Positions 35,721 through 57,675 of a DNA stretch of 64,000 nucleotides are shown piece after piece; position 1 is the first letter of the stretch; each line of letters starts with the position of its first letter. The translations under genes and the position numbers were made by a program. The stretch comes from Candidatus Calditenuaceae archaeon HR02 (GTDB lineage Archaea; Thermoproteota; Nitrososphaeria_A; Caldarchaeales; Calditenuaceae). Location: contig BEHE01000008.1 in assembly GCA_002898395.1 (NCBI GenBank), positions 20,640 through 84,639 on the forward strand. Direction: 5' to 3'. The notes below the pieces were generated by a model. It was not told where the DNA came from. It saw only the letters and a program-made list of their open reading frames with translations, and made no database searches.

Positions 35721-37076
35721 ATGAGCAGTAGAGTAATTGTCATAGGAGGGGGCGCGGCCGGAGCTTCAGCGGCCGCGAGGGCCAGGAGGATGGACCCAGA
35801 GGCCGAGGTGACCCTGATCGAAAGGACTGGGATGATAACCCACGCTCCTTGCGGCATCCCTTTCGCGATATCGGGACTCGTCCAGAGCTACAGGATGCTC
35901 AGGACCTACTCTCCTGAGAGGTTCGCCTCCGAGAGGAGGATAAGGGTCCTGACGAACGCGACGGTGACCTCGATCGACGTCGACGGCAAACGAGTCGAGG
36001 TCTCGCTCGGAGACGGCAGGACGGAGAAGCTCTCATGGGACTCGCTGGTGATAGCGACGGGCGCTAAGCCGCTGATACCTCGTGGACTCGAGGGGGTGGA
36101 GGAGGCGAGGCCAGTTCTACTGAGGCACCCGGAGGACGTGGTGGAGGCGCAGCGGAGGCTCTCCGGCGCTTCTAAGGTCGCGGTCCTCGGAGGGGGGTAC
36201 ATCGGCGTCGAGGCTGCGGAGGCCCTTATCGACCTCGGGAAGAAGGTGACGCTGTACGAGATGATGGACAGGCTTCTGCCAACGGCGATCGACGGTGACG
36301 TCTCGAGGGTCCTCGAGGAGTCGGTGCGGCGTGCGGGCGTTGACCTGAGGCTCGGCCAGCCGGTTAGGGCCCTGAGGAGGAGGTCAGATGGGATAGCCGT
36401 GATCACCGACGCCGGCGAGGAGGTTTTCGACGAGGTGGTGATGGGGCTGGGCGTGAGGGCAAACGCGGACCTCGCGGTCTCGGCCGGCGTGAAGCTCGGA
36501 GCGACCGGGGCTGTGGAGACCGACGAGTTCATGCGGACGAACCTCGAGGGCGTCTTCGCGGCCGGTGATCTGGTAGAGAAGCACCACCTCCTGCTCGGTA
36601 AAAGGGTCTGGATACCTCTGGCACCTGCGGCGAACAAGGAGGGGCAGGTGGCCGGTGCGAACGCCGTGGTCCCGGGATCGCTCAAGATGAGGGGCATCGT
36701 GGGAACGGCCGTGACGAAGTTCAGGAACACGTACGTTGCCAGGACTGGCCTGTCGGAGACGGAGGCCAGGGCCAACGGGTTCAACGTAGAGTCGACCCTG
36801 ATCAAGGCCAGGACCAAGGCCGGGTACTATCCCGGAGGGGTTGAGGTGACGGTGAAGATGGTGGCCCAGTCCGGAAGCGGAAGGTTGCTCGGGGTGCAGG
36901 TGGTGGGGGACGATCCGGTCGTCGCGGGGTACGCCGACGTCGCTGCGACTGCGATAACCGCGGGCTTCACGATCGAGGACCTCTTCTTCACCGACATAGG
37001 TTACATGCCGGCCACCGCGCCCGTCTGGCACCCGCTGATCGTGGCTGCCAGGACCCTCTCGGGAGGAAGGTTCTGA
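35721..37076 (+). CDS. CoA-disulfide/persulfide reductase (NADH oxidase family)
   Basis: GGGAAG, HAPCGIP active-site Cys, GGGYIG, AAGD, C-terminal FFTDIGY.PATAPVW; visibly GC-rich. Confidence 0.88.
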   Translation: MSSRVIVIGGGAAGASAAARARRMDPEAEVTLIERTGMITHAPCGIPFAISGLVQSYRMLRTYSPERFASERRIRVLTNATVTSIDVDGKRVEVSLGDGRTEKLSWDSLVIATGAKPLIPRGLEGVEEARPVLLRHPEDVVEAQRRLSGASKVAVLGGGYIGVEAAEALIDLGKKVTLYEMMDRLLPTAIDGDVSRVLEESVRRAGVDLRLGQPVRALRRRSDGIAVITDAGEEVFDEVVMGLGVRANADLAVSAGVKLGATGAVETDEFMRTNLEGVFAAGDLVEKHHLLLGKRVWIPLAPAANKEGQVAGANAVVPGSLKMRGIVGTAVTKFRNTYVARTGLSETEARANGFNVESTLIKARTKAGYYPGGVEVTVKMVAQSGSGRLLGVQVVGDDPVVAGYADVAATAITAGFTIEDLFFTDIGYMPATAPVWHPLIVAARTLSGGRF

Positions 37077-37385
37077 GGTAAGGAATAGAGGAGGCGGGGT
37101 GGGCGATAGGTTTATGAGCGGTTGAGGGCCTCACCAAATCCGCTGACTTAAGGACCAAGAGGGGGATGGACCTCTGCCCCCCCCCCGATGGGAGAGGTAG
37201 TCGCATGGACCTCGCATACAAACCTCGCGCCAATAGCTCTCGCATACCTTAGGGCTACGGGCCCTGTCCGGATGGTTAGCTTTTGAGCTACCCAGCGTTC
37301 TCTACACGTGCCTATAATATGCTCAGATGAGCAGTGTTCCTCCTGCAAGGAGGGTTGAGAATAGTCACGGGGCGATGATGTAAGC

Positions 37386-38813
37386 TTATTCCACACAGCA
37401 GCTCATCTTCTGCAATGGTCTGAGGAAGGCCTGTGCACTTAACTTCAGGGCCTCTGCGTATGTGGGGAACACGTGTATGGTGTTGACGATGTCCATGAAT
37501 GTCTTGCCATATTTGATGTATAGGGCTGCCTCGGTTATGTATTCGGCTGCGTTGTGTGAGACGATGTGCGCCCCCAACACCCTGCCATCGTCGGGCGCTA
37601 TCACCAGCTTGGCCAGGCCAAGTGCACCCATCATTCTAGCCTTTGCGACGTTCTCCAAGGAAACTATCCTGCACGAGCATGCACCGAACCTCTTCACCAC
37701 CTCCCTCTCAGTCAAACCCACTGAAGCCGCCTGCGGCTCAGTGAATACCACAAATGGAACGGCATCATAATCCATAGAAGCCGAACCCTCTTCGACGATG
37801 TTGGAAGCAGCCACCACACCCTCACGAGCAGACAGTGTCTCAAGCATTAGAGGCTTGGCTACACAGTCACCCGCGGAGTATATGTTGGGTGCACTTGTTC
37901 GCATCATCTCGTCCACCTTTATGAAGCCTCGCCCGTCGACGGCTACGCCACATTTTTCCAGCCCGATTCCATCCGTGTTTGGTTTTCTGCCTGTCGCTAC
38001 CAGTATGGCGTCAGACTCTATGGTCTGCCTGCCCTCGTTGGTCACAACCACGGCGTGACTGTGACCTCCATGCTTCGAGAACTCTACAATCCTAGCCTTC
38101 ATGATAATCCTCATCCCCTCGTCAGCCAATATATTGGCCAGTGTGGAGGATATCTCAGGCTCCATGTTGGGCAGAATCCTGTCAAGCACCTCGACCAGCG
38201 TCACTTGACAGCCCAGTCTCTGCATAGCCTGACCTATCTCAAGCCCCACGGCACCCCCGCCCACCAGGAGCATGCTCTCGGGGAGGCTCTCTATCCCCCA
38301 TATCGTGTCGGTGGTGTAGTATCCCACCTCCTCCAACCCAGGTATGCTGGGCACGGATGGACGTGAGCCAGTTGCTATGAGGGCCTTTTGGAACCGTACC
38401 TCGCGTACTCCCTCACTTGTCTCCACCGCGATGGTATGGGTTGAGGTGAATGAGGCCCTGCCCTCCACATGCTCCACGTTCGGATAATGCTTCAGGACAT
38501 CAACATATTTCTCGCTACGCATAGAATCTACAAAACTGCGGAGAGAGCCCATTAACCTGCCGAAGTCGAGGTCCGCGCCTTTGGGCGTGACTCCGTCGAA
38601 CAAGGCCATGTGGCTGCTGTGATAGTGTTTGGCAGCCTCTATCAGGTATTTAGAGGGCACGCAGCCTACGTTGACACATGTTCCACCAAGCCTCCCAGCG
38701 GAAACCATCAAGATACTCATCCTACCCCCTGTTAGCTCGCTAGCCTTTATCGCAGCACTGAAAGCGGCAGCTCCTCCGCCGATTATAATCAAGTCGTATT
38801 TGGTATTTCTCAT
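37386..38813 (-). CDS. merA: Mercuric reductase (archaeal type, no NmerA domain)
   Basis: GGTCVNVGCVPSK, IHVFPT and C-terminal MSCC pair. Confidence 0.92.
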   Translation of the reverse strand: MRNTKYDLIIIGGGAAAFSAAIKASELTGGRMSILMVSAGRLGGTCVNVGCVPSKYLIEAAKHYHSSHMALFDGVTPKGADLDFGRLMGSLRSFVDSMRSEKYVDVLKHYPNVEHVEGRASFTSTHTIAVETSEGVREVRFQKALIATGSRPSVPSIPGLEEVGYYTTDTIWGIESLPESMLLVGGGAVGLEIGQAMQRLGCQVTLVEVLDRILPNMEPEISSTLANILADEGMRIIMKARIVEFSKHGGHSHAVVVTNEGRQTIESDAILVATGRKPNTDGIGLEKCGVAVDGRGFIKVDEMMRTSAPNIYSAGDCVAKPLMLETLSAREGVVAASNIVEEGSASMDYDAVPFVVFTEPQAASVGLTEREVVKRFGACSCRIVSLENVAKARMMGALGLAKLVIAPDDGRVLGAHIVSHNAAEYITEAALYIKYGKTFMDIVNTIHVFPTYAEALKLSAQAFLRPLQKMSCCVE

Positions 38814-39090: not shown

Positions 39091-40689
39091 TCAGCCAAAC
39101 ATTAACTTATCCATGGTTGACATGATAATTCCTCTCTTTTCGTCAGGAAGCCTCGCCACACATTCTATCATACTCTTTCTAACTATAGCTCGAAGGTTGC
39201 TTGGCAGTGTTTCCAGACCATCCATCATGTATTTCACATGTTCCAGCCTCTGCCGGCCTGGACAAGTCGCCAAAAAGTCGAGCCTCTTATACATGACTAC
39301 TAGTCTCTTTTCTTCCGATAGTGCAGCAAGCATGCCGGGCATTATCCTAAGTAAAGCTCTGAACTCGTTTCTTAGTGCTAGAGGTCTCACTACCAGCATC
39401 AGGATGGCTCCTAAAACAAAGAGAAAAATTCCTATGGAAAAATCTAGAGGATTGTTGGCATAGTTCAGGCTGTTTGTGAATACATGGATTTTTGTTCTAA
39501 AGGCAAATGCAAAGCTATAGATCAGAAGTACCACCCCCACCCAAAGAAGCAATTGCTTAAGGAATAGCTGTCGTCTTGTTTCTAAGCCTTCCAATAATCG
39601 TGACTTATACATCATCCTCACTGGAACCAAGATGATGAAAGATATGACAACCGGAATTATGGCTGGCCAGTCTTCAGAACTTGGCACTAGAACGGTGAAT
39701 GGTACTACCGCCCGAAAGGCATTAAGAAATCCATAGAGAAGGATCAATAGACCGAAGAACAGTAAGGATTCTTTGGCAAAATTTATTTTGTTTTTGAGTA
39801 CTCCGCTGTTTCCAAGCAACCTCTCTCTTCTCAAAATCATTTTGAATATTCCTCTTATGGGAATGAGAAACATTATTCCCCAGAAGGCCAGAATAAACCC
39901 CCACCAATTCCATCGTGGCAGAGTAGGATCGATGTGAAGCATCAGGATAAGCCCCATTCCGGTGAGCAAAACACCCTTGACAAGATTTACCCCACCAGGC
40001 AAAATCAGGTCAGGTCTGAAGGCAAACATTTCCCCCAATTCCAAGCCACTAACATACTGACCATGTGTCTTGCTGGATCCAAGCCATGCGGCAGAAGCCC
40101 AGAATCCAATTAGTAATCCGATAAGGACGAACGCAGGCAAGCTTAATTTTGTAGTTGCCGTTAAAAAGAATTGCTCCATGGAGAGCTTGCCAGATTCCTC
40201 CAACTGGTGTAGTTCATGCAATAAAGGTATAGCAACTGTTAATCCAAAGGTAGCAATGGCGATGAACAATGGCATGAAAATTACCCCAGCAATAAACAAA
40301 ACCGGTTTGTACTTGAAGTAATGCTGAAGCTCGGTAATCGGATAGAGCATTATGCTCATAACCGCAGCAACTAGGCCGATTCCAATGATGGCTTCTGGCA
40401 AAAATAGTGGAACCTTTCTTTGTGTAAGGGAAACCGACATGATAAGATATAGAATCCCCAAAAAAGGCAATGAGAGAAAGTGCAGGATCGGGATAGATTT
40501 TCTAACTTTTCCAACGTAAGCTGTGAATGTAAATGTTACGGGAAGAGAATACGCAACCAAAAGGCCCTCTAAAAATTTTTCATTACTAAATAGGTTTCCC
40601 ATCAGCCAGTACCATGACAAGAATGTAAAAAGGAATAGCAAAAAGAGTGGAACAACGCCCACTATGAAAGGAATACTTCTCATACTCAT
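39091..40689 (-). CDS. Unknown polytopic membrane protein with four C-terminal 19-aa helical repeats
   Basis: About 11-12 hydrophobic segments; C-terminal LxxLPxxxR repeats. Confidence 0.85.
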   Translation of the reverse strand: MSMRSIPFIVGVVPLFLLFLFTFLSWYWLMGNLFSNEKFLEGLLVAYSLPVTFTFTAYVGKVRKSIPILHFLSLPFLGILYLIMSVSLTQRKVPLFLPEAIIGIGLVAAVMSIMLYPITELQHYFKYKPVLFIAGVIFMPLFIAIATFGLTVAIPLLHELHQLEESGKLSMEQFFLTATTKLSLPAFVLIGLLIGFWASAAWLGSSKTHGQYVSGLELGEMFAFRPDLILPGGVNLVKGVLLTGMGLILMLHIDPTLPRWNWWGFILAFWGIMFLIPIRGIFKMILRRERLLGNSGVLKNKINFAKESLLFFGLLILLYGFLNAFRAVVPFTVLVPSSEDWPAIIPVVISFIILVPVRMMYKSRLLEGLETRRQLFLKQLLLWVGVVLLIYSFAFAFRTKIHVFTNSLNYANNPLDFSIGIFLFVLGAILMLVVRPLALRNEFRALLRIMPGMLAALSEEKRLVVMYKRLDFLATCPGRQRLEHVKYMMDGLETLPSNLRAIVRKSMIECVARLPDEKRGIIMSTMDKLMFG

Positions 40690-40696
40690 ATGAGCT

Positions 40697-41089
40697 TTAC
40701 ATCTTTATCCCTAGCTCCCTCATCATCTTAAGCATCATTTCGCGACTTTCTGCGGGCAGTCCCATTAGAATAGCTTTTACTACCCGCATCTCTTTTAACT
40801 GTTTTTCAGAAGACAATTCCTGAAGCGCTGCAATATGTGTTTTCATCAACTTTACCTGGTCTGACTCTGGAAATCCCATTAGGACCTGAAGACGCGTTCT
40901 TGCCAGCTTCTCATATTTTTCTTCGGGCAAATCAAGTGCAACGTCAAGCATCATCTTCATCGCATCTTTTCTCTTGTCATCAGGCATCTCTGCAAAGCTT
41001 TTCAGCCGCGTTTCCATCATAGCTTTCCTTGTATCCTCGGAAACAGTAGCAAGGCTCTCAACCATTTCTTTCACAGGATTGCTTGCCAT
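40697..41089 (-). CDS. Unknown soluble Met-rich protein made of six 19-aa helical repeats
   Basis: Intact ORF 7 nt upstream of the 532-aa gene; exact 19-residue periodicity. Confidence 0.85.
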   Translation of the reverse strand: MASNPVKEMVESLATVSEDTRKAMMETRLKSFAEMPDDKRKDAMKMMLDVALDLPEEKYEKLARTRLQVLMGFPESDQVKLMKTHIAALQELSSEKQLKEMRVVKAILMGLPAESREMMLKMMRELGIKM

Positions 41090-41120
41090 ATTCCATCAAT
41101 GATAACTATCCATTATGTAG

Positions 41121-41171
41121 TATTTAAGCCACCTAGTTTATACCGTTATAGTGGCTATGCTATTCCATAGT
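41121..41171 (-). promoter_or_regulatory. TATA box plus shared upstream motif, copy 2
   Basis: + strand TATTTAAG at 41121; TAGTGGCTAT-GCTATTCC-ATAGT at 41149-41171. Confidence 0.72.
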
Positions 41172-41202
41172 AAGCATTGTATCAAGCCGGTTCACTCTCG
41201 CT

Positions 41203-41397
41203 TCATCTTCTTCTTTTCGAACTTGAGAACATCACAGCAGCTCTGACCTCTTCTTTTTGCGAATCTTTTTTCAAAAGACGGAATATCTTGATATCTACAG
41301 CAAGTCCTGCTCCAGCCCCTGCAATACCAAGAATGTATGGTACTCCAAAATAGCCGCCGATTATAAATCCAGCGAACAGGCCGATACAGCAGAACAA
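41203..41397 (-). CDS. Small membrane protein with N-terminal CC
   Basis: Two Gly-rich TM segments, basic tail, TATA-like box about 26-33 nt upstream. Confidence 0.6.
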   Translation of the reverse strand: MFCCIGLFAGFIIGGYFGVPYILGIAGAGAGLAVDIKIFRLLKKDSQKEEVRAAVMFSSSKRRR

Positions 41398-41532
41398 CTC
41401 ATGATAAAAAACGGAAGGAAATATTTAAGCACTAAAGTATAAAAATGCATAGCCAATATCGTTGAGAAAAGTTAGAAAACTCATTCGACGAATGAAAAAT
41501 TAGGGGAACTGATTAGGGTAGGGTGTTCCCCT

Positions 41533-41922
41533 CTATTTTTTATCCTTTTCTATCAATGTACAGGAGCAATGGGCGACGACCGTCCCTTTCTGTTTCAGCG
41601 CCCACTGAAGGATTGGAATTATAGCTGCCCTGAGCCCCTCCCCCTCTTTAGTGAGCGTATATTCAACTCTTGGAGGGATTTCGTTGAATGTCTCTCTTTT
41701 TACCAGGTTGTGTTTCGCCAGGTCTTTTAGTGTGTCTGCAAGTATCTTTGGACTGATTCCCTGTAGCTCCTTCATCAATTCGTTGTAGCGTATCCTCCCG
41801 TGGTTGCCTATTTCATTCACTACCAGGAGAGTCCATTTTTTGCCGATTAGGTCGATCACACCTTCTAGTGGGCAAAGGCATATAACACGGCTATCAGCTT
41901 TGCTACTTTTCTTGGTCGCCAC
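41533..41922 (-). CDS. HxlR/DUF24 winged-helix transcriptional regulator
   Basis: CP..IGKKWTLLVV, GISPKILADTLKDL, EIPPRVEYTLT. Confidence 0.92.
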   Translation of the reverse strand: MATKKSSKADSRVICLCPLEGVIDLIGKKWTLLVVNEIGNHGRIRYNELMKELQGISPKILADTLKDLAKHNLVKRETFNEIPPRVEYTLTKEGEGLRAAIIPILQWALKQKGTVVAHCSCTLIEKDKK

Positions 41923-42651
41923 AATGTTCGTACAAACCAGATAGCATAAATACTTTATTGTGAGATTTGGTAACCGTCGTTTCTTTACTTATCTCACAAA
42001 TTATTCTCAGCGTAGCTCAATTCTGGACAGGACACGGGTCTAAGAGTAATTAGATATGAAGATCGTACTGTTACGAGAGACCAAAAGGGTGGATAATTGG
42101 GCGTGAGTGATGTAGCTGTAGCTAAGATATCCGGAAAATTGTGCAAGATGCTGGCAGGTCAGGGACATTTTTGATGTATGGGACAGCAGGAACCCGTGAA
42201 GGAGTTCTACGCGTTTGGCAAAATGCTCAGGCAAATACTGAGGAGCACCATAAGGTCAGACAAGAATTATCGTAAAGTGGAAGACAGGCTAAGTTAAGGT
42301 TTGGAAATGAGTATCAAAGTTCTGATATCGTTACACTACCACTAAGGGGACTGTCTCCAGCAGGCGGCTGAAGATAGAGAAGAGAGGCTTTTTATGTTCC
42401 TTGAAAAAGAAAGGGTGCGATAGGGCAACAAAGTAGGTGAAAAATCTTCCAACTGTGTGTCGTTGGGGGCAAGGGGTCTGCGGTGCGACAGATGCAGACT
42501 ACGCGGACCGATTCTCTATGACCATGCGCTGGAGTATCTAGCAATCCTTTTAAAAAGATAAACAATTAATTTTCATAAAATATTTCAAGCCCCTCTTCAA
42601 GTCTGGGATATTCTACAGTTTATTCTTTCGCCATATTCATCATGATAAACC

Positions 42652-43767
42652 TCACCAGTAAAGAAGCCAAGGAAAGAATCGTTCAACTATTAGGTAGCCA
42701 GGACTCGCAGAGGAGGCTGCCGCTGGCATGAAATACAAGGCACATATTGCCAATGGAACTATCATTGCAATATGTGCCATGAACGGAAAAATGAAAAACC
42801 GAGGATAGTTGAATCGTATAGCGGGCATCATAGTTGGCATTACAGCCATCATAACAGCAAAGACAAAAATGCCCCATAGTATCGCCAGAGTCCACGAACC
42901 TCGCCCAAAGAGCATCGTATACGCAATTCCATATGTTGCGCCGTTGATGAAATGCCACAGATATCCCAGAAACAATATCCGAGCAGCAGAAATTTTCTCT
43001 TCCTTTAAAGTCATAGAGAAAGCAGCGGGGAAAAGCCTGAAAAAATCTTGGACGCTAATTTTAGGCATTTTCTTATGACCGCCGGGTGTGGCCATCCTCA
43101 GCTTTGCAGGTATGACTCCACGGTTTTCACGTATGTTTTCAGATGATGCAGAAAATACGAGTTCGTCCATGGTTCTCATTAATACAGATCTCTTTTCCGC
43201 AGGTAGAGTGGATAGAGCTTCGATTTGAGACTTTACAAAGACTTCTCTCTTATCATCAGGTAGCATTTCTATTCCTCTCATCATTGCTAGCATCATCATC
43301 TTTCTCGCATCGTCTGGCAGGTTGCTTAACCATTGAACTCTTTCGGCGATCATGCGATTTCTCTGCTGTTCTGGCATGTTGGCTATTTCTTTCACCAAAT
43401 TCGCGATCACATTGCCCATGAATTTTGCCGCGACCCCAGACCACATCATACCAAATATCTTAGGCATATCTGCAGGAAACTCACCAAGTCTGACTCCGGT
43501 TAGTCTCACTATGTCGAGAGCTATTGTACCCAAAAGACCACCAACGGCGCCCCATAAGATTAACTGTAGAATAGAACTGTTGACTGCAATTGACGATGTC
43601 AGCGTGATAACGAATACTGCCAAGGACACTATACCTATCGTTTTAAAGAATTTGGGTGCAGGAAACGCCAGGATTCTGTCGGCCATGAGCCCTGCAGTAG
43701 GCGCACCCAGTGTAAGCATTATCGGAATCCATAAAGACCAATCTACATTACTGAGTTCAATAGGCAT
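42652..43767 (-). CDS. Unknown membrane protein with four inserted 19-aa helical repeats
   Basis: N- and C-terminal TM blocks (GGLLGTIALD; GYLWHFINGATYGIAY; MAHI) split by LPxxxR repeats. Confidence 0.85.
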   Translation of the reverse strand: MPIELSNVDWSLWIPIMLTLGAPTAGLMADRILAFPAPKFFKTIGIVSLAVFVITLTSSIAVNSSILQLILWGAVGGLLGTIALDIVRLTGVRLGEFPADMPKIFGMMWSGVAAKFMGNVIANLVKEIANMPEQQRNRMIAERVQWLSNLPDDARKMMMLAMMRGIEMLPDDKREVFVKSQIEALSTLPAEKRSVLMRTMDELVFSASSENIRENRGVIPAKLRMATPGGHKKMPKISVQDFFRLFPAAFSMTLKEEKISAARILFLGYLWHFINGATYGIAYTMLFGRGSWTLAILWGIFVFAVMMAVMPTMMPAIRFNYPRFFIFPFMAHIAMIVPLAICALYFMPAAASSASPGYLIVERFFPWLLYW

Positions 43768-44105: not shown

Positions 44106-44624
44106 CTAGTCGTCTCTTCTCTTCTCCGTATGGGCTGTTGTTGTCTTACGGCTTTCAAGTACGCTGACAGCATTAAGCGTCTTGAAGCCGCCTAGCTTGT
44201 ATATAGAGAAGAACACGATACTAATCGATATCACTGTGAATATCGGCGAATAATATGTGAGGAAAAGGATAAGTCCGAGCGGAAGTAGAATACCTATGAA
44301 CGAGAAACAGGCAGGGCAAATGCCAAACATTAATCCAATAACAGACCCTACAAACCCCATCCTTGTACTTTTTTCAGACTTGCAGTCCAGACACATGTTT
44401 CTTGTAAAAGAATAGAGTGAGATAAACATGCCAAACAGGATGGAAAAGGCTATGTATAGTACCGAGTTAAGTGGCTTTTGCTGCAGGTCAAGCAACCATA
44501 TTCTGAAAGCTAGTGGCGTGTTTATCAGCTGAATTATCGGAAGTAGAGAGAAAATGCATGCTGCTGCCACTGCAATAACAGGCTTATTCTTTACAGCATA
44601 AAAGAGCAGTATGTGTGCTGCCAT
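44106..44624 (-). CDS. Unknown 4-TM protein with CLDC and intramembrane CPAC motifs
   Basis: Hydrophobic pattern and two CxxC motifs; last gene of a 3-gene run. Confidence 0.78.
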   Translation of the reverse strand: MAAHILLFYAVKNKPVIAVAAACIFSLLPIIQLINTPLAFRIWLLDLQQKPLNSVLYIAFSILFGMFISLYSFTRNMCLDCKSEKSTRMGFVGSVIGLMFGICPACFSFIGILLPLGLILFLTYYSPIFTVISISIVFFSIYKLGGFKTLNAVSVLESRKTTTAHTEKRRDD

Positions 44625-44633
44625 TTCCCATCA

Positions 44634-45254
44634 TCACTTTTGTGTTAAAAGAGGTGCAAGCACCTGCTTTATCTTCGAATATTCAAGTGGATATACATCC
44701 ACCCACCGGATTATGCCATCCTTATCTAGTACGTATTTTGTATCAAGATACCGCACCTTATATTGCGCTACCATATCTACGCCTGCTGCCACATACCAGT
44801 CCTCCCTGCCATACTTATTCTTCCAGTCTAAAAACTGGCTCTCAGTCTCCCTTGGGTCTACAAATACAATTAATACGTTGAAAGCATTGCCTCCAGTCTC
44901 GTCATCATATCTGGCCAGATTCTGAGCGCCTATCTGGCAGGGTGTGCACCAGGTGGTTGTAAAGAAGATCACAAGCGGCTTTCCATGGAATGTTGCTTTT
45001 GAGATAGGCCCCTTCAGAGGGTCTATGAGTCTGAAGTCGGGTGCCAACTGTCCCACTTCTAACCCTTCTACGACGACTGTTCCGGGGGCGACCGTAAGAT
45101 TCCGACCACCAACGCTCGATGACGCTTGTGAATTAGACAGGGTCATAAAAACCGCGCCTACTATTACAGCAATTCCTATTACACCTATAATAGTGGCAAA
45201 AAACTTAGCTGTGGATTTCTTTGGTTGTGACCCTCTTTTCTTACCCTTTCCCAC
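44634..45254 (-). CDS. Membrane-anchored TlpA/ResA-like thiol-disulfide redoxin
   Basis: N-terminal TM, GQLAPDF, TTWCTPC, YVLDKDGIIR. Confidence 0.88.
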   Translation of the reverse strand: MGKGKKRGSQPKKSTAKFFATIIGVIGIAVIVGAVFMTLSNSQASSSVGGRNLTVAPGTVVVEGLEVGQLAPDFRLIDPLKGPISKATFHGKPLVIFFTTTWCTPCQIGAQNLARYDDETGGNAFNVLIVFVDPRETESQFLDWKNKYGREDWYVAAGVDMVAQYKVRYLDTKYVLDKDGIIRWVDVYPLEYSKIKQVLAPLLTQK

Positions 45255-45819
45255 AACAACTCCCCTCCTTCATTTTACTGATTTTGTCTGAAATCGAGAA
45301 AGTGCCTAGAGCCAGAACTGCCACAGTTAAGGGAGCCATGTAGCGGCTGTAGAGGGATAGGGAAGAGAAAGCAATTGCCCCGATGACAGAAACCATCAAC
45401 CCGCCTCCACAGCATGCAAAGCTTGTAAAGAATGCGGGTAGCAAGCCCAAAAACCCCTCCAACCCTGTCGGCTTTCTAACTCTGCATACAGCGGCTAGTC
45501 TTCTAGAATAAAATGTTAGAGCAACATTAAGCCCAACAAAGAACGACGACACTATCACGAAGGCGAGAGCATCATAAAAGATGAAGAAAAATACGTCTGG
45601 CGCAGGAATAACCAAGATTCCTATTGAGTATAACCTTATCATGGGGTAGTTGTCTGTGAAGGAGGTTAAACCAGGTCCGTATCTTATTACTCCAACAGCA
45701 ACCATGTAGAATGAAGCGTAGGCTAGTCCAGACGCCAACAGTATTCCTAAATAACTTTTTGATTTTATGACATGAAAAATAGGTGCTAACATTCTCCTCT
45801 CTAAAAGGATGCTCTGCAT
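45241..45819 (-). CDS. Unknown 4-TM protein with FACCGGG and C-terminal GSCCG
   Basis: Hydrophobic pattern; likely start ATG 45819 given the TATA at 45847; overlaps the redoxin start. Confidence 0.78.
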   Translation of the reverse strand: MQSILLERRMLAPIFHVIKSKSYLGILLASGLAYASFYMVAVGVIRYGPGLTSFTDNYPMIRLYSIGILVIPAPDVFFFIFYDALAFVIVSSFFVGLNVALTFYSRRLAAVCRVRKPTGLEGFLGLLPAFFTSFACCGGGLMVSVIGAIAFSSLSLYSRYMAPLTVAVLALGTFSISDKISKMKEGSCCGKG

Positions 45820-45845
45820 GTATCCGCATGTTACTGTCAAACCGA

Positions 45846-46775: not shown

Positions 46776-47119
46776 TTAAGAGAAGTATTCGTAAGCGTAG
46801 AACCCCCGCAGTATGACCAGCATTATTATAACCGAGACCGCAAGTAACGCCACCAGCCTCGTGAGTGCCCGTTCCTGTAGACCTTTTTACGGTAGATCTG
46901 TAGTGTAGCCAGCGAGAGCACTATGAAGAGGACCAGGAGGATTACGCCGTGTCCCACCCAGTGGTGTCCGAAGGTAGCTTTTAGTACACCCTTTAAAGGT
47001 GTCAGCTCCTTGACTACGGTGAGTGGGCCATTTAGGAGTGTGATGATTATCGATGATGTGAGTAGTGAGAAGGCCCATGCCTTTCTATGCTCGAGCCGTG
47101 TCTCAGCATCTACCCTCAC
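46776..47119 (-). pseudogene. Frameshifted small membrane protein with HHWVGHG motif
   Basis: ORF 46826-47119; another frame supplies a last TM helix (LVALLAVSVIIMLVILRGFYAYEYFS*). Confidence 0.6.
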
Positions 47120-47410
47120 CCCTTGGCTAGGGCGACTCTGTAACCGATCGAGACTAGAAGGTTAAACATGCGGAGCTTCAGGGATTGCTAGAGAAGCTTA
47201 AGGAAGAGGTGGATAAAGGCCCCAGTCTACCTAAGAGGGTCGGTGTTGATATAATTCCGAGATGCGGGTTAGGTTGGAGCGGGTGGCCTTAACTCGTCGG
47301 ACTCCTCATTCCGCAGCGACTTTGGAGAGATGGTAGATTAACCGGTGGAGCTCCTCAGAAATTGGAAGTGTTTATATAGCTTATGTTTAATTTAGTTGTA
47401 CTGAGGTTTA

Positions 47411-47605
47411 ATGACTGTTAGTCGGGTTAAGCGTATGGGCGGGTCATTGATGGTTACTATTCCTAAGGAGCTGGCGGATGCTTTGGGAATAAAGGAGGGA
47501 GAGATCGTTAGTATCGAGGTAAAGAAGCTGCGGCGTGATTTCTTTGGCGCATTAAGGAATTTGTCGCCCATGGCTACTGAAGAGGAGCTGCATTCCCATG
47601 AGTAG
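47411..47605 (+). CDS. AbrB/MazE-type antitoxin
   Basis: VKRMGGSLMVTIPKE..LGIKEGE. Confidence 0.88.
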   Translation: MTVSRVKRMGGSLMVTIPKELADALGIKEGEIVSIEVKKLRRDFFGALRNLSPMATEEELHSHE

Positions 47606-47714
47606 GGTCTATGTGGTCGATGCATATGCATGGATTGATTATCTACGTGGGAGTAAAAAGGGAGAGTATGTTCTGGAGTCGTTGATGGCTTATTGTTTTC
47701 GCATCTGTGTGTAG
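47598..47714 (+). pseudogene. Truncated VapC/PIN toxin
   Basis: MSRVYVVDAYAWIDYLRGSKKG overlapping the antitoxin stop; ends after 38 codons. Confidence 0.72.
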
Positions 47715-48090
47715 GTTCCGAGTCTCCGTCCAGGCTTTGGTGGAGGGTTCGCAATCGGATGATGGGAGGACGGCAGAGTTGCTGGAGCTGGTGAAGGAGA
47801 TTTTGTAGCAGTTGGAGGTCTCTAGGGATGCTAGGGTGGATGAGGTGGTGGAAAGGGTTCTAGAGAGCATGCCTAGGAGGCTGGATGAGGTGACTGTCAG
47901 GGCAGAGGAGAGCTATACCTAACGGATTCTTAGGCTGGCCGGCGGCGTGGAGTTTTGGTGAGGAAGAGCGGGGCTATCGCCGTCAGGTCCTACATCCCAC
48001 TCAATGACATATCCATAGTCAAGAAAATCTGGTAGTCAATCTAGAATGCCTCACCACGCCTCTACATCGTTCTGGTTTAGCCGTCCACCT

Positions 48091-48705
48091 CTACCTCTCT
48101 ACCACTTTGCCTTTCTCGAACTTTGATGTAGCCTCCCAAATCCTTTGATGGGGTTTCCTCAATCTATGTGTTTCAACCTCATAAACGTATCCTGTTATCG
48201 CTACGTCTCGTGGTATCAGAGGGCTGTTTCTGAGTGCTTCCACGTTCTTTATGACGATATCGTCAATATATTCAACTCCTAGGTCTGTGAAGAATTTGAA
48301 CCAGTTGGCAAACTCTTTTTCACCTTTTAGCCCGAGGGCTGGGAGTAGTGGGTCTATCGCCAGCTCGGCCGGCTTTATCCCACGCCTCAGGAAGTAGTCA
48401 GCCACCTCTGCACCTTTGAAGCGAAGCATGCCGCAATCGGTATGGTTAACCACAATTATTTCTCTTGTGCCAAAGAAGTTGGTGGTGAGGGCTGCCGACC
48501 TTATTACGTCGTCGGTTACAACGCCTCCGGCGTTTCTGAATATGTGGGCGTCGTCGGGTTCTAGTCCCAGGGCGGACTCTATGCGGATTCTTTCATCCAT
48601 GCAGGTCAACACGAATAGTGACCTGTTGTTGGGTATTCCTCTAACTCTTCTCAACGCGTAGTCTTCGAGTTGTTTTATCTGTGCTTCCAGTCTCTCTGCG
48701 TGCAT
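48091..48705 (-). CDS. Carbon disulfide (CS2) hydrolase, beta-carbonic anhydrase fold
   Basis: CMDER and HTDCG Zn ligands, TTNFFG, LEDYALRRVRGIPNNR, VYEVETHRLRKP; 204 aa from ATG 48705. Confidence 0.85.
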   Translation of the reverse strand: MHAERLEAQIKQLEDYALRRVRGIPNNRSLFVLTCMDERIRIESALGLEPDDAHIFRNAGGVVTDDVIRSAALTTNFFGTREIIVVNHTDCGMLRFKGAEVADYFLRRGIKPAELAIDPLLPALGLKGEKEFANWFKFFTDLGVEYIDDIVIKNVEALRNSPLIPRDVAITGYVYEVETHRLRKPHQRIWEATSKFEKGKVVER

Positions 48706-49242
48706 ACTGTTGACTGGTGTGGAGGGGTATTTATGTATTAGCCTATTACAATAATATGATAATATTATTATATTTAAAGGCATATTTCAGGAATAGACGC
48801 ATCCCACCCGTAACAGCCCTAATATCACCCAACCAAAACCCAAGCCATCTCCTTAAACCAGCCGCTGAGAGGTTGGAAGTAGCTCCCCCCTCTACCGTAG
48901 GCCCTTATATATCTCTGGGCCCCTCCTAAGCATCTCCAGCCACCCGACGCAGTAGGTCCTGCAGACATGGCAGACATCGTCGAACAGCGTTACCTAGTCC
49001 CGGAAGGGTGCAAAGGTCTCTGCTGACCTATACCCAACCTATTACTATATGACGAGATTAACGGTTTTAACGGGTATGGTATAGTAGCCGATGTACAGAA
49101 TCATACCTTAATCACAGATTACTGACCAAAATGCAATATAAAAGTAAAAAGAGCCAAGAATAGATATAGAAGGGGACCCCTAATCTTTACTAGACTAGAG
49201 TAGAAAATATTTATGCCCGAAACCTGTTAAACAGCCATTGAA

Positions 49243-49866
49243 GTGGAGCTGATGAGCGGAGCCGCAAATGATGTGGTGAGAATAGTCCTGGAAGCGTGGA
49301 GGCGGACTTTCTCTCTGAGAACACTCGGCGGCGGGGTGATAAGGTGTCTACTCGTCTTCTGCGAGAACAACCTTGTGGAGTTGGAGACAGATGAGGTACG
49401 GAGCGTTGCGCCAATCAGTGGGCCTGAATCAGATCGGTTCTACAGTAGAAGCGGCCGCGCTGAGGAAGATGTGTTTTGGAGCGTAGTAGGAGAGATATTT
49501 GCAGAGATTCGAGGCGCCGATGAGAAGGATAGAACGTGGTATGCGGAATTAGCGAGGCTTAGTGGCCTCAAATACACTCACGCAGTCCAGATCATCCAAC
49601 AGTTGATGGAAAAGTACTGGAGGATCTCCCATGTAAGGGTGGGATATGAGACGGGTTACGGCGAGCTCGATGGGTTGAAGGTGAAATCAAGAGGGAACAG
49701 GGTAGATTTGCAGTTCAAGGTGGGTGGAGAGAAGAAGAGATACGAGATAGTCTTTCTATCTAACGAGCACGTCGAGAATGCCTATAAAACCTTAAAGGAA
49801 GTTCTTAGGTTGGGACAAGGCAACAGTGATATATCTCCCCGGGACAGCGGGGTGGACAAGCTATGA
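49243..49866 (+). CDS. Hypothetical protein
   Basis: 207-codon ORF with protein-like composition; no motif recognised. Confidence 0.55.
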   Translation: MELMSGAANDVVRIVLEAWRRTFSLRTLGGGVIRCLLVFCENNLVELETDEVRSVAPISGPESDRFYSRSGRAEEDVFWSVVGEIFAEIRGADEKDRTWYAELARLSGLKYTHAVQIIQQLMEKYWRISHVRVGYETGYGELDGLKVKSRGNRVDLQFKVGGEKKRYEIVFLSNEHVENAYKTLKEVLRLGQGNSDISPRDSGVDKL

Positions 49867-50214
49867 GGATGGTTTGGGGCTCTTGACGTCATAGTGAGGA
49901 AAGAAAACATAGCAATTATCATATCCAGTTTCTTCTACCTAACCAAAATCTTCTCGAATCAAAGGAATTTAAATAAAATAATTATTTCTCGGAGGGATTC
50001 AACACTTTCCCCCGTTGCTACAGCATAAACAATATAGTAAAGCAAACTGTCGCCAAGATAGAGGAGTCTAGCAATGGTGTCAAGAACATATAAATCCCTT
50101 CCATCTAAAATCGAGCACTTCAAAACTCATACTACCCCTGTACCTCATCTTCGCAAGCCACGTATGTGGGTTAACGGTCTATAGAGGGGTGCTTTGGTGA
50201 AAACAATTACGATG

Positions 50215-50637
50215 CTACACTTCAGAGAGATGCTTTATGTTTGTTAATGGGACTTTTGCTACAACCTCTTTATCGGCTGTATAGAGGGTTGCATTCTGTA
50301 ACATGGCTAGGGAGACATAAACTGCATCATATAGCGTTATGCCGAACTTATATGCCAGTTCCACCGCTCTTTCACGCAGTTCCCCTTTAAACTCGTAGGT
50401 AGTTATGCTCATGTCTTCTAGGGCTTTGAGAGCTGTCTTGACATCCTCAATCCCAAATCTTGGATTATACCTTAAGGCGTTAGCCACCTCGTAGTGTAGA
50501 AGGACTGGCGCTATCAAGTCTATCTCACCGTTAGCATACCTATTCCTTATTGTTAATGCCTCCTTCCTTAGTGGCTCGACGTTGAACCATTTCACTGCTA
50601 CACTTGCGTCAAGTACGAGTATCTTCTCCTCCTCCAT
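50215..50637 (-). CDS. vapC: VapC/PIN toxin
   Basis: VLDASVAVKW, YEVANAL, TLYDAVY, YTAD. Confidence 0.92.
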   Translation of the reverse strand: MEEEKILVLDASVAVKWFNVEPLRKEALTIRNRYANGEIDLIAPVLLHYEVANALRYNPRFGIEDVKTALKALEDMSITTYEFKGELRERAVELAYKFGITLYDAVYVSLAMLQNATLYTADKEVVAKVPLTNIKHLSEV

Positions 50638-50873
50638 CTGATCACCTCATCCTCAGCTATCCAGCCAGACCCCTCCGATAACTTCGCCAGCCTATCCATC
50701 TCCTCGATAGCACGCTTAATGGTTGTGGTGTCTTTAGTGGACCTCATTCTTCGCTCCTCCTGCTCCACAACAGTTTCAACATACCTCCTAAGGAGCTCGC
50801 TCCAGTTTATGTGGCGGAGCCTATCTATCCTAGCTTTAAGCCTCTTATCGACCCGGAAGCTGATGATGCTCAC
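50598..50873 (-). CDS. VapB-type (RHH) antitoxin
   Basis: GTG start 50873 (MSIISFRVDK), INWSELLR, EVIRWRR; overlaps vapC. Confidence 0.82.
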   Translation of the reverse strand: MSIISFRVDKRLKARIDRLRHINWSELLRRYVETVVEQEERRMRSTKDTTTIKRAIEEMDRLAKLSEGSGWIAEDEVIRWRRRRYSYLTQV

Positions 50874-51058
50874 ATGTCTTGTAATACATCGCTGTTTAAT
50901 AAGTATTACAGTTCCCCACTCCGCAGCCCAACATATATAGCAGTTTTCCACCCCCTTATTAGAGAGAAGGATCTCAGCCTTAGGAGCTAGGTGGGGCGTG
51001 GTGAGCGGGGAAGCCTTCAGGGAGGGCATGAGATGCCTTATCGGGAAAGAGTTAGGAG

Positions 51059-51420
51059 ATGAATAGGCATAAGAGCGGGAAGGTGCTGATTGACGAGTGG
51101 GTCCCAACGGGAGAGGTAGGGGTAGAAAGCGTACAGGAGAGAATCGTTGGCCAAAATCCAGTTATAAATCGACTACATGTTTGGTTTGCGCGTCGTCCAC
51201 CCGTGGCTTCTAGGGCTGCTGTTCTTGCCTCCATACTCCATCCCGAGACCACTAGAGAGGAGTTTCTTAGGCTGTTGGGCATTCCTCACGACAGGAACGT
51301 GGTCGCGGCTGCCGAGAAACTAGCTAGGGCCAAGGCCAACAAGGTTAGGCTTAAGGAGAATCCGTTTACTTGGGAGAGGGCCTTCAAATATACTCCGCCC
51401 AAGCCTCAGCCAGATGAGCT
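51059..51420 (+). pseudogene. N-terminal fragment of a DUF1156 DNA methyltransferase
   Basis: LIDEWVP..VESVQER and LHVWFARRPPVASRAAVLASIL signature; only about 120 codons remain. Confidence 0.8.
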
Positions 51421-51652
51421 AATGGAGAGTGTTAGGGAGTGGGGCCATAGGATATTGAGACTCTTCAATCCATCTAGGAAGTTTAGCTACAGACGAGACA
51501 GTGGCTAAGAATAACAGTAACATGTAGAGAAGTTCTATAACAATATGAACTCCAAGACTGTCAAAAGCATTAAGGAGATAGCGACTACGATGGCCCTAAT
51601 ACACAACATACTTCTCGAGAACAGAGAGGGAGCTGCAACACTTGATAGTGCA
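51420..51652 (+). mobile_element. Internally deleted IS6-family remnant
   Basis: ESVREWGHRILRLFNPSRK then FYNNMNSKTVKSIKEIATT, matching the C-terminus of the 53.7-kb copy. Confidence 0.65.
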
Positions 51653-52298
51653 AAGGATAGAGTGTATGAAAGTAGCTTACCTTGCATAGCATAGAAGATA
51701 TTTTTAGCTGTACGTGGATGTGTGGGTAGTCTGGGTAAAGTTGTCGGTATAGATTCATCTGAGCATCTGAATTTCATTGGTTTCGTTTCTGGAACATTAG
51801 ATCCTATCTGCGCATATACTGGTATTAGTGATCTCAGATACGAGTTGAGCCGATCGACTAGAGTTCCCGCAAGCGCGCTAGAGGGCTCGCTTAAAAGGAA
51901 TTTAGCGAAGTTGATATTGAAGATAGTCTTAGTAGAGAGTCTTGGAAAGGTCTACGCCGATGTTGAGATATCTCAACCACCAGGAAAACTTGGTAATTAG
52001 ATCATCCCATGGGTTACCAATAAAATTGGCCGATATAATTGCTTGGACGAACTTAAGAAGACCACACGACATAACACGAGGCGGCAAGTTTTCGGGGGCA
52101 GTTAAGTTAACTTGAAAGAGGAACCGGCAAAAATGGTAAGGTCAGAGTTTAGAATTTAACGTCGGGCTCACATCAGCCCCCGCCCCTATGCCTGTTCATT
52201 CATCCCCGAACTTTTTCAGGCATAGCATGAGGGGTTCGGACCCTCATCCAGTTATCACTCCCCTTTCCTTACCTTTAAGCCTTTCCTATAAATGGGTG

Positions 52299-52345
52299 GG
52301 GACTGTCAACTAGGTGTTACGCCTCCTCGGGTGTAAGGAAGGTGT
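52299..52345 (-). mobile_element. Isolated IS6-type terminal sequence
   Basis: GGGACTGTCAACTAGGTGTTACGCCTCCTC matches 23 of 30 nt of the IS6 end at 53696. Confidence 0.62.
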
Positions 52346-52476
52346 TAGGTACTCAGGAGCGCGAATCGTCTGCAAGAGGTACCTGTAATACGCTCGTTGC
52401 TCCTAGCACCATTTAACCAACATGTCTACAAGGTGGTTAAGTGCGTTGTTATCCCTTACGATGCCCAGATGAGCGA

Positions 52477-53409
52477 TTATATTATCGATGCAATGTTGAG
52501 TTCTTGCATAACCCTGTTTATCGGATTCGCCAATGAAAATATATCACTTCCTGCAAAGAGGACCCCTATCGCCCTATTGTTCTCATCTACTACAAGGCTA
52601 CCAGAGTCTCCTCCTTTACTAAATCCACCTGGCTGAATAACAATTTGGTCATCAAATGTCAGATGTCCTAGGCTTAGGTAATTAACTTTAACATAAGCTC
52701 GTAGTATAACAATTACACCACGTGTCAAGCCAGTTGTCCTTCCACTCTTCTTTACATGTAAGCTCAATGTTGGCATTCCCACACCCCTCACCTTGCCAAT
52801 GTAAAATATATCGGGACTAACATCTTGTATGTTTATCGGCCTAGCTAGGGCGGCATCAACATAGTTAATGCCATTAGGATTCAAAAAAGTCCACGTCCAT
52901 AATGTAGCAATTGTATCGTTAGGATTTCCCCCGTCATAAGGACCAGGTTGGTATATAGGATCACCTATTCTGGCATTGTTAGAGTTTGCAAGCACATGAT
53001 TATTGCTGAGAATGTATACATGACCTTCATTATCTCGAACCAGACATCCTAAGGTGCCAGCAGTGACCATATAGTGACCTATACTCACACCCCCCTGAGC
53101 TGGCCTAACCCTTTGTCTTGATACGTAAGGAATTGGTCTTGCACTTTGGAGCTCGCCAGCTACAATAGCTGTTACTGGTACGCCGAACTGATCCGCAATG
53201 GCTTGAGCTATTGGTTGAGCGTATTCGTTTCCCCGCCGAAGGAGGATAGCTAATGCTTGCCTACCGTTTGTGTAGGTTATCCCAATACCGTTCACATCAT
53301 TTTCAAGCGTTCTTGATGAGACTCTCGCTGCAGCAAATAACTTGTTTATATTAGCTCGCGAACCAAAGAAGCAGTCTATGCAATAACGTCGAGCCTGCTC
53401 AACGCTCAT
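52477..53409 (-). CDS. Trypsin-like (S1, NAL1-like) serine protease, no signal peptide
   Basis: TAGTLGC, LSNNHVL (His), DAALA (Asp), KSGRTTGLT, GDSGS (Ser). Confidence 0.88.
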   Translation of the reverse strand: MSVEQARRYCIDCFFGSRANINKLFAAARVSSRTLENDVNGIGITYTNGRQALAILLRRGNEYAQPIAQAIADQFGVPVTAIVAGELQSARPIPYVSRQRVRPAQGGVSIGHYMVTAGTLGCLVRDNEGHVYILSNNHVLANSNNARIGDPIYQPGPYDGGNPNDTIATLWTWTFLNPNGINYVDAALARPINIQDVSPDIFYIGKVRGVGMPTLSLHVKKSGRTTGLTRGVIVILRAYVKVNYLSLGHLTFDDQIVIQPGGFSKGGDSGSLVVDENNRAIGVLFAGSDIFSLANPINRVMQELNIASII

Positions 53410-53644: not shown

Positions 53645-53695
53645 TACACCTTATGTTTGATCGCACAGCTAATTAATCCTTTCGCATATTTGAGG

Positions 53696-57620: not shown

Positions 57621-57675
57621 GCACACATACATGATAACATGAGTATTTAAAAATTTTTCTTAAAAAGAGCTATAG

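Follow-up and report, generated by a model that had tools for sequence, protein, structure and literature searches.

Why should three proteins encoded next to a mercuric reductase gene, one of them seemingly soluble and the other two embedded in the membrane, carry the same methionine-rich repeat? The question is raised by a stretch of 64,000 nucleotides of Candidatus Calditenuaceae archaeon HR02 (contig BEHE01000008.1, positions 20,640 to 84,639), hereafter called the window. Three genes of the window, here called A, B and C, make up a conserved and previously undescribed three-gene set, which is patchily distributed across Archaea and Bacteria, and travels with mer genes, the link being strong. 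Judging from sequence comparisons, each of the three genes stands for a new protein family, and the domain that they have in common is new as well. The set is rated as a new kind of system.

A repeat module in one apparently soluble and two membrane proteins

Gene A (39091..40689, minus strand) encodes a polytopic membrane protein of 532 aa, in which N-terminal transmembrane (TM) helices and three tandem TM-hairpin units are followed by a C-terminal solenoid of four repeats (39103..39330, minus strand; residues 454-529, 4 x 19 aa). Gene B (40697..41089, minus strand), which stops 7 nt before the start codon of A, encodes a 130 aa protein including six 19-aa repeats (residues 13-126, nt 40712-41053). 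Gene C (42652..43767, minus strand) encodes a six-helix membrane protein of 371 aa, hosting a module of four repeats in its central loop, at an insertion site between TM3 and TM4 (43159..43386, minus strand; residues 128-203, 4 x 19 aa). Written out in rows of 19 residues, the repeats of A, B and C are in exact register, with no insertions or deletions. Met residues account for 13.1% of B, 7.8% of C and 4.7% of A. The first-pass annotation, which had been drawn from the letters of the window, placed the three open reading frames (ORFs) at these coordinates, counted six units in B and four each in A and C, and pointed out that the first units have an R(L/V) pair in common (positions 16-17), whereas the last ones end in M..MDxL or MMREL. 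All this is correct as stated. A and C had also been described as otherwise unrelated membrane proteins, and outside the module hhalign indeed gives a probability of <1%.

Whether the repeats align to each other had been singled out early as a check. In BLASTP comparisons of the repeat regions, C matches A with an E value of 9e-15 (37% identity over 79 aa), B matches C at 3e-9 and A at 2e-6. A hidden Markov model (HMM) built from the modules of the A and C families alone gives B 55 bits for repeats 1-4 and 33 bits for repeats 3-6; B can thus be described as one module plus two extra repeats. The similarity is well above chance, and on this sequence evidence the three regions are homologous. 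An HMM of the 14 repeats, hence trained on the very repeats of A, B and C, matched A, B and C only among the 19,515 six-frame ORFs of the host genome (an assembly of 1.73 Mb in 36 contigs), the next best match having an E value of 1.5. By inspection, B has neither a long hydrophobic stretch nor a signal-peptide-like N-terminus, and is plausibly soluble.

AlphaFold2 models obtained with the family alignments have a mean predicted local distance difference test (pLDDT) value of 89.7 and a predicted template-modelling (pTM) score of 0.89 for A, and of 90.6 and 0.87 for C. Each 19-mer is predicted to form a single helix, turns of 2-4 residues joining successive helices. In the model of C, the four repeat helices stand between two sets of three TM helices. 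A short conserved segment (FPxDMPxxFG) and a lead-in helix connect the first set to the repeats, and a low-confidence linker connects the repeats to the second set. The core of A is modelled as three tandem units, each made of two TM helices and a cytosolic amphipathic helix; the internal repetition is detected by hhalign between units 2 and 3 (97.5%, E 5e-12), and between units 1 and 2 (77%). A further hhalign match between two fragments of A (A_N1 and A_N2) is an artefact of the 19-residue overlap between the cuts, and the notion that the two halves of C are an inverted repeat is unsupported (hhalign 0.6%). Since the module of C has Arg/Lys-rich flanks, and that of A is preceded by an Arg-rich stretch after the last TM helix, positive-inside reasoning suggests that both modules face the cytoplasm.

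The nearest structural matches of both modules are HEAT/ARM-type alpha-solenoids. VIA aligned residues 454-529 of A to the MIF4G chain 6ozu_B (Z 7.6, rmsd, root-mean-square deviation, 2.5 A, 74 residues aligned), and to the CID of p15RS (4nac_A, Z 6.9); residues 117-203 of C matched the same two chains, 4nac_A (Z 6.4, rmsd 2.7 A, 80 residues aligned) and 6ozu_B (Z 5.7). All these Z values fall under the bar set by the tool for reading helical-repeat matches as more than a common arrangement. Sequence identity to the HEAT/ARM-type domains (CIDs of p15RS/Rtt103, MIF4G) is 5-7%, the matched CID and MIF4G domains belong to eukaryotic RNA machineries, and the unit found here is a single helix of 19 residues (38 residues a pair). 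The helix predicted for each 19-mer and these modest matches agree with the earlier description, in which one soluble and two membrane proteins have a small solenoid in common.

The membrane cores of A and C have no Pfam or NCBIfam family, and no clearly similar solved structure. Foldseek retrieved nothing from the PDB at E <= 0.001 for either protein (best 0.18 for C and 0.047 for A), and wide VIA searches returned middling Z values only, by which no family is excluded. In the ESM Atlas, C and residues 100-455 of A found no usable feature match; template-modelling scores of the structural rows are <= 0.31 by query, and the rows exceeding 0.5 by target are stretches of 58-67 residues only. Sequence searches of the PDB with the three family profiles gave noise, the best match of B being a C-type lectin neck repeat (E 2e-4), with none for A. 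The threefold TM-hairpin layout of A resembles that of the mitochondrial carrier UCP1 (8hbv_A; VIA Z 7.2 for residues 213-455). The likeness is of layout only, as the rmsd is 6.2 A over 194 residues. A as a member of the mitochondrial carrier family was discarded, as Pfam finds no Mito_carr signature despite the threefold hairpins. As modelled, neither membrane fold has a clear solved relative.

Databases hold 109 homologues of A and 46 of C, every one hypothetical or unnamed. Their hosts include Geothermarchaeales, Thaumarchaeota, Actinomycetota, Gemmatimonadetes, Anaerolineales and one cultured member of Bacillota, Terrihalobacillus insolitus, which carries an A-family protein (WP_272466822.1). 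Word-based searches with B found no relative of 71-228 aa; relatives were recovered through locus scans and a profile search. The profile, derived from 18 B genes, matched 425 representatives at E <= 1e-3, and 131 at <= 1e-10, among 1.84 billion, mostly 120-170 aa long. Family alignments included 22 sequences for C (alignment A1), 24 for A (A2) and 18 for B (A3). The module is present in 24/24 A members, three of which have six repeats, and is retained in short relatives of A (~400-440 aa) missing the first ~100 residues. Among C members the module occurs in 17/22, and is absent from five of ~260 aa (P0042-P0046), which indicates that it is an insert into an older C membrane core. Some B members have an N-terminal two-TM hairpin (loci L004 and L021), or a C-terminal tail anchor (L007), and tethered variants of this kind fit a cytoplasmic, membrane-proximal location of B. 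Tandem duplicates of B are found in L007 and L019. Three B-family proteins (L006:7864-8340, L010:2722-3195, L019:8307-9182) end in a basic stretch followed by WWxFW, a tail absent from B of the window, which may be a membrane-attachment or sorting signal.

Conservation is focused on Met, Arg and His residues. In B, M9, R21, M24, R28, F32, R40, M44, M47, L54 and R66 are invariant (18/18), M6, M101, M123 and H85 are kept in 17/18, and M82 in 14/18. Even-numbered repeats carry MxxM or MxxH (M44/M47, M82/H85, M120/M123), odd-numbered ones an R9...M12/13...R16 pattern sharing one helical face. Modules of A and C follow a common plan: each repeat has an Arg at position 9, repeat 1 has a further Arg and repeat 2 a Met at position 16, and repeat 4 carries M13/M16 (an MxxMD motif). 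In the A family the position-9 Arg of repeats 1-4 is found in 23, 22, 19 and 24 of the 24 sequences, and the module keeps R469 (24/24), H484 (21/24), corresponding to a His at position 12 of repeat 2, M488 (24/24), M523 (21/24) and M526 (20/24). In the membrane core of C, D85, R88, D100, M101, H272, M306, M307, M310, M313, M314, H332 and M335 are conserved in 19-22 of 22 sequences, a set including 7 Met, 2 His and 2 Asp. Met makes up 11.7% of the B family versus 2.5% of neighbouring ORFs; Cys is depleted to 0.1-0.2% in the three families (0.2% in B) versus a background of 1.2%, and no alignment has a conserved Cys column.

The first-pass annotation recognised no named family, and the searches agree: NCBIfam gives no match and Pfam only sub-threshold matches to DUF3106 (PF11304), the sole library family with a signal in the repeat region. 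B scores 17.8 bits and C 21.4, A has no match, and the gathering cut-off is 24.3, so that by the curated rule none of the three is a DUF3106 member. Among relatives, 8/18 B members match at E <= 0.01 (best 2.2e-7), along with 6/22 C and 1/24 A members. DUF3106 is therefore probably, as far as profile comparison goes, a distant relative of the repeat. It is a family with no function assigned, and is silent on the membrane cores of A and C; in the accessible part of the full-text literature it surfaces in unrelated Helitron work only. DUF6789 (PF20587) faintly matches 2/22 C-family members (best E 3.7e-4), and does not match C of the window. An MgtE_N or FliG-like identity, named beforehand as a reason to abandon the idea of a new repeat, was rejected: neither PF03448 nor FliG matches A, B or C at E <= 0.1, the FliG chain 3hjl scores an E value of 0.95 against the C-family profile, and Atlas structural rows with MgtE_N have template-modelling scores of 0.18-0.33. 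Neither Pfam nor NCBIfam matches A, B or C to mercury transport families (MerT/MerP/MerC/MerF/MerE), and LTXXQ/Spy families do not match them at E <= 0.1.

Distribution of the gene set and linkage to merA

When a single genome from each GTDB species was scanned with the profile of A, 26 loci were identified, in Methanobacteriota, Thaumarchaeota, Heimdallarchaeota, Bipolaricaulia, Chloroflexota, Deinococcota, Actinomycetota and Nitrospirota. A B-like gene is found in 21/26, nearly always adjoining A, C in 14/26, and all three genes in 12/26; the co-occurrence in other genomes that the earlier annotation had proposed to look for is therefore observed. Incomplete sets mostly lie on short contigs or at contig ends; L009 (13.9 kb) is truly an A-only locus. 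L027 and L029 are, by their record names, two contigs of one metagenome-assembled genome (MAG). Eleven additional loci on metagenome contigs were found via C: A and/or B are present in six, three others are shorter than 2.5 kb, and two are C-only.

The genes seem to have spread together. In a tree of 77 modules (in which the row L038_B_2, a cut A fragment under the 150-bit threshold, is mislabelled as B) sequences group by architecture and not by genome, with 4 label changes against a mean of 36.5 in shuffled trees, none of the 200 shuffles being as low. The three module types must therefore have diverged before the set spread, and been kept distinct since; concerted evolution of modules within a genome is ruled out by the same tree. 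In 40 relatives of the host belonging to the same genus, family or order, A is missing (0/40), no B gene is convincing, and C occurs once (1/40). A match to B in relative G022 (E 0.0096, within a 933-aa frame) was taken as spurious. The single C gene (relative G006) is truncated by the contig end, and lies directly upstream of merA. The cluster has a GC content of 42-47% versus ~50% elsewhere in the window. It is followed by what looks like a variable or mobile region bounding the island (47000-62500), where PIN domains are encoded by three genes (50215-50637, 57019-57411, 60120-60533), next to a DUF1156 fragment and ~17 ORFs unmatched in Pfam. Patchy distribution, low GC and the adjacent region rich in PIN and unmatched ORFs all point to horizontal acquisition of the cluster. 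The window also holds archaeal host markers (CDC48, RadA, Pcc1, TiaS, Snf7, diphthamide synthase). A tblastn search with A found no match in a plasmid collection. Sequencing runs listed as containing the stretch include no RNA run, and one DNA run, a hot springs metagenome holding 0.38 of the sampled words.

A merA gene (37386..38813, minus strand) lies in the window downstream of A, and scores 541.8 bits against TIGR02053 (cut-off 454.45). It encodes the core enzyme, with no N-terminal HMA domain, and ends in a vicinal Cys pair. The merA/redoxin context stressed by the first-pass annotation recurs elsewhere. merA genes over the TIGR02053 cut-off are found in 9/26 A loci, all among the 16 loci of at least 10 kb (9/16). 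At the genome level merA occurs in 14/20 host genomes searched, which with five more carrying it within the locus makes 19/25. For comparison, merA was found in 12/120 other genomes from the class of the Acidimicrobiia host G041, and in 9/40 host relatives. In the same class sample A occurs in 2/121 genomes, both with merA, which in G138 lies ~5.6 kb from A on the same contig. These counts include related genomes, which are not independent, and the carriers span many phyla. In terms of context, what is seen is the recurrent linkage to merA expected of mer operon accessories.

In locus L008 a single strand encodes A, B, C, a major facilitator superfamily protein, a CMAS-type methyltransferase, a redoxin, MerA, a DsbD_TM protein and MerB. 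MerB is also present in L015, and by BLAST in L023; MerR_1 is found in L009, and an HMA protein with a weak MerT-like match in L019. Of the two C-only loci, L032 has the order ArsR-C-MerA-redoxin-DsbD-like, the reductase being named by BLAST to a locus MerA (50% identity). L035 starts with an extracytoplasmic function (ECF) sigma factor, followed by C together with a ClpP-like domain, then by ArsR, and lastly by a MerA-like reductase (BLAST only, 40% identity). C directly adjoins the reductase gene in both, as it adjoins merA in G006. TlpA-type redoxins are found in 8/26 loci, in the window and in L032, and DsbD_TM-like proteins recur. ArsR regulators are identified by Pfam in 5/26 loci, two of them fused to rhodanese, and ECF sigma factors in 3/26.

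Genes surrounding the set

Within the window the genes are ordered, all on the minus strand, as 199-aa CC-motif membrane protein, TlpA-type redoxin, 172-aa CxxC membrane protein, C, HxlR, 64-aa CC-motif ORF, B, A, merA. The HxlR-family winged-helix regulator (41533..41922, minus strand; PF01638, 81.6 bits) is located upstream of B-A, and in the Nitrospira locus L021 an HxlR gene (3087-3500) is found directly upstream of A. The regulator of the window has an N-terminal and a C-terminal CxC motif; it could be an Hg- or thiol-responsive regulator of the B-A unit, replacing MerR/ArsR. Between HxlR and B, a single-TM ORF of 64 aa (41203..41397, minus strand), starting with a vicinal Cys pair in the TM helix, may or may not be a real gene. 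Upstream of C, a membrane protein of 172 aa with two CxxC motifs (44106-44624, minus strand), a membrane-anchored TlpA/AhpC-TSA-type redoxin (44634-45254, minus strand), and a membrane protein of 199 aa carrying CC both within a TM helix and in its C-terminal tail (45241-45840, minus strand) are encoded. Neither the 172-aa nor the 199-aa protein falls into a Pfam or NCBIfam family. In relative G008 merA is flanked by homologues of the redoxin and of the 199-aa protein, and in G006 merA and a homologue of the 199-aa protein are ~1.2 kb apart. The 172-aa and 199-aa proteins may be a resident archaeal pair for Hg uptake or thiol relay. On the other side of the cluster, a plus-strand gene for a CoA-disulfide-reductase-like pyridine-nucleotide disulfide oxidoreductase (35721-37076; TIGR03385, 373 bits, cut-off 578.8) converges on merA, and GC content reaches 0.605 at 36001-38000, versus 0.42-0.47 in the adjoining cluster and ~0.50 elsewhere.

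Small membrane ORFs with vicinal Cys residues are found next to merA in other loci too, 65 aa long with a CCxxP motif just upstream of merA in L019 (9458-9655), and 86 aa long with CCVLP at the contig end in L008 (14481-14738). A further family of such ORFs, cluster c7, 115-163 aa long, is found beside A, between it and C, in four Acidimicrobiia loci (L018:6689-7135, L012:10187-10678, L024:9734-10207, L016:8830-9177), upstream of A in L016 and downstream in the other three; 3/4 have HHHxCCPxPG-like His-rich tails. All these small ORFs, including the 64-aa one of the window, lack a Pfam match, and look like unrecognised Hg(II) ligand proteins of the MerE/MerF/MerT type.

Additional neighbours are enzymes acting on lipids or proteins. 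CMAS-type methyltransferases are encoded in 4/26 loci and in L036, and patatin-like phospholipases in 6/26 and L036. In Acidimicrobiia the two genes are located immediately upstream of B-A (L016, L018, L012, L036); in L008 the CMAS-type gene lies between C and the redoxin-MerA-MerB genes. A ClpP-like gene is placed between A and C in L019 (6375-7034), and in L035 (1662-3137) a ClpP-like/SDH-type serine protease domain is in frame with C, either a true fusion or two genes merged by ORF calling. A trypsin-like peptidase (L010) and OsmC are also found among neighbours, and the trio of L006 has a plastocyanin-like gene next to it. HMA domains in the scanned neighbours are carried by MerA and one MerP-like gene only. 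No E1-E2 ATPase, CopZ-type protein or CsoR was detected among the neighbour ORFs scanned (66, 48 and 70 proteins, mostly of at least 140 aa or from recurring clusters); a HAD-domain fragment at the start of the L020 contig could be the tail of a P-type ATPase.

A possible role in the handling of mercury

Mercury resistance is a textbook detoxification system. In many mer islands outside Proteobacteria we know of no recognised route for the delivery of Hg(II) to MerA, and early-branching lineages reportedly have few ancillary functions, as Boyd and Barkay are said to have noted in 2012. A, B and C may be an accessory membrane module of mer islands, which would deal with a thiophilic soft metal (Hg species being the likeliest) on the inner side of the membrane. 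We put this forward tentatively, as the best of the accounts considered, yet one which is somewhat likelier to be wrong than right. According to this proposal, C would provide a Met/His/Asp-lined path within the membrane, and A, with its three TM hairpins, would be a second membrane partner. The Cys-free, Arg/Met/His-faced solenoids of A and C would act as docking or hand-off sites for free B, which would in turn shuttle or buffer the ligand from the membrane proteins to Cys-based acceptors, such as the small CC-motif membrane proteins and MerA. Weak thioether and imidazole ligands placed before strong thiol ligands could make the transfer directional; Ctr1 hands Cu(I) to Cys-bearing chaperones by the same weak-to-strong order of ligands. 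The fuller version of the proposal is a Met/His relay for mercury or soft metals working without cysteine ligands, that is, a new mer transport and hand-off class with two new membrane folds and no kinship to MerT, MerP or MerC, which horizontal gene transfer would have carried through Archaea and into five or more bacterial phyla, and which would supply the missing transporter components of merA islands. This we regard as rather unlikely.

A soluble carrier with two membrane docking partners had been imagined from the start, and it is the contact of A with B that receives weak support from complex prediction. Whole A (alignment A2) and B (alignment A3) scored 0.52, the best of three controls 0.08; at least 95% of contacts are common to the runs, with a partner pLDDT of 82 or more. 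In calibration, 58 of 80 solved complexes and 2 of 110 mismatched pairs came up to the mark of the tool; those which did so with a score <=0.60 were only 7 of the 80 solved complexes, and both passing mismatches. The pairing is likely beforehand, because B adjoins A in most of the 21 loci bearing B, and the module is shared.

Several observations weigh against a role in mercury handling. The A-B score falls in a band where predictions are more often wrong than right, unless the pairing is likely beforehand. To our knowledge, all characterised Hg(II) transporters and carriers (MerT, MerP, MerC, MerF, MerE, MerH) use Cys pairs, and A, B and C have no conserved Cys. Thioethers are poor competitors of cellular thiols for Hg(II), and Met-only motifs are selective for Cu(I)/Ag(I), not Hg(II). 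An invariant Arg on the same helical face as Met is atypical for a metal site. Cys-based candidates already occur in the loci (the small CC-motif ORFs, the HMA protein and the MerT-like match of L019, the TlpA/DsbD-like pairs), and A, B and C may therefore be unneeded for uptake. No merA was found in 6/25 host genomes, which are MAGs, so that its absence is unproven. Finally, the Acidimicrobiia trio is associated with CMAS and patatin genes, at times with no merA nearby (L012, L018, L028, L036), and ClpP-like genes adjoin C in L019 and L035; neighbours of this sort point to membrane or protein damage control.

The canonical mer proteins (MerP, MerT, MerC, MerF, MerE, MerH, NmerA) share with A, B and C the setting, next to merA, merB and a regulator, and the proposed task, bringing Hg(II) to MerA through or along the membrane. 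They rely on Cys pairs, whereas A, B and C have no conserved pairs, are nearly devoid of Cys, and match none of their families. Met-motif Cu(I)/Ag(I) proteins (Ctr1, CusF/CusB, CopC, CcoA, SilE/PcoE) share MxxM, MxxH, HxxM and MMxxM motifs on helices or TM segments, and B resembles them in being small, Met-rich and helical. Yet these proteins act mainly outside the cytoplasm, while the modules of A, B and C seem to face it in a mercury context, and no match to them was found in either sequence or fold.

Alternative readings share parts of the same evidence. Neighbouring CMAS, patatin, ClpP-like (L019, L035), trypsin-like (L010), OsmC and ECF sigma genes would be readily explained if Cys-free, Met-rich surfaces worked as holdases or scaffolds guarding or repairing membrane proteins and lipids under thiol-reactive metal stress, with hydrophobic or anionic clients in place of a metal. 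The M domain of SRP54 and Spy/CpxP are models for surfaces of this kind. A conserved face mixing Arg and Met suits the binding of phospholipids or unfolded chains, Cys depletion would confer insensitivity to Hg, and the remote DUF3106 match of the B family (8/18 members) is in line with it. Such a function leaves unexplained the Met/His/Asp cluster in the core of C, and the presence of C alone between regulator and merA (L032, L035, G006); the lipid enzymes are mostly from Acidimicrobiia, and hence not independent, and LTXXQ/Spy families were unmatched. We hold it to be rather unlikely. The invariant H272 and H332, set on different TM helices with Met neighbours, could rather indicate that C bears a cofactor, such as a haem on two TM His or on His/Met, and feeds electrons to the extracytoplasmic TlpA-like redoxins found in 8/26 loci, the window and L032. 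Being Cys-free, this route would dispense with Hg-sensitive cysteines, A and B being accessory. DsbD/CcdA-like proteins, the usual electron route, are however present in many of the same loci, C matches no haem-binding family or fold, and B and the copy of the module in A would be left unexplained; a conduit of this type is quite unlikely.

Met/His motifs are ligands of Cu(I)/Ag(I) in Ctr1, CusF/CusB, CopC and SilE/PcoE. By analogy, the MxxM and MxxH motifs on stacked helices, and the MMxxMxxMM and HxxM motifs in the core of C, might belong to a copper or silver homeostasis system which happens to occupy the same metal-resistance islands as mer genes, as the plastocyanin-like gene of L006 would suggest. 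The lack of E1-E2 ATPase, CopZ-type and CsoR genes among the scanned neighbours (mostly >=140 aa), the orientation of the modules towards the reducing cytoplasm, in which Cu(I) is normally bound through Cys, and the enrichment specifically with merA make this possibility decidedly slim. The solenoids might also be interaction domains coupling membrane sensing to the adjacent regulators. HxlR adjoins the set in the window and in L021, ArsR occurs in 5/26 loci by Pfam and ECF sigma factors in 3/26, and C has weak Sigma70_r4_2-like matches (E 0.034 in the window; 2/22 members). These matches are far under the cut-off, the type of regulator varies by locus while A, B and C are constant, and three module-bearing paralogues with large conserved membrane cores exceed what a sensor needs. 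We consider a sensory complex very unlikely, and the least probable of the readings discussed.

The published literature on mer operons and methionine-rich metal proteins, as far as its accessible text goes, holds no paper on A, B or C; bioRxiv supplements and other journals may differ. In the accessible part of one study, early lineages tend to carry MerA alone (Christakis et al. 2021, PMC8261052). What emerges here is an unannotated three-gene set tied to merA across at least eight phyla. If a Met/His relay were at work, the set would provide the missing membrane components of archaeal, actinobacterial and Chloroflexota merA islands lacking a recognised transporter. Mercury handling without cysteine ligands would change the accepted chemistry of Hg trafficking, and the genes would become new markers for following how Hg is cycled in hot springs, groundwater and sediments. 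Should they provide instead a Cys-free protection from stress, they would show how membrane functions are kept up under thiol poisoning. Microbial handling of mercury may include this set as a component that has so far gone unrecognised.

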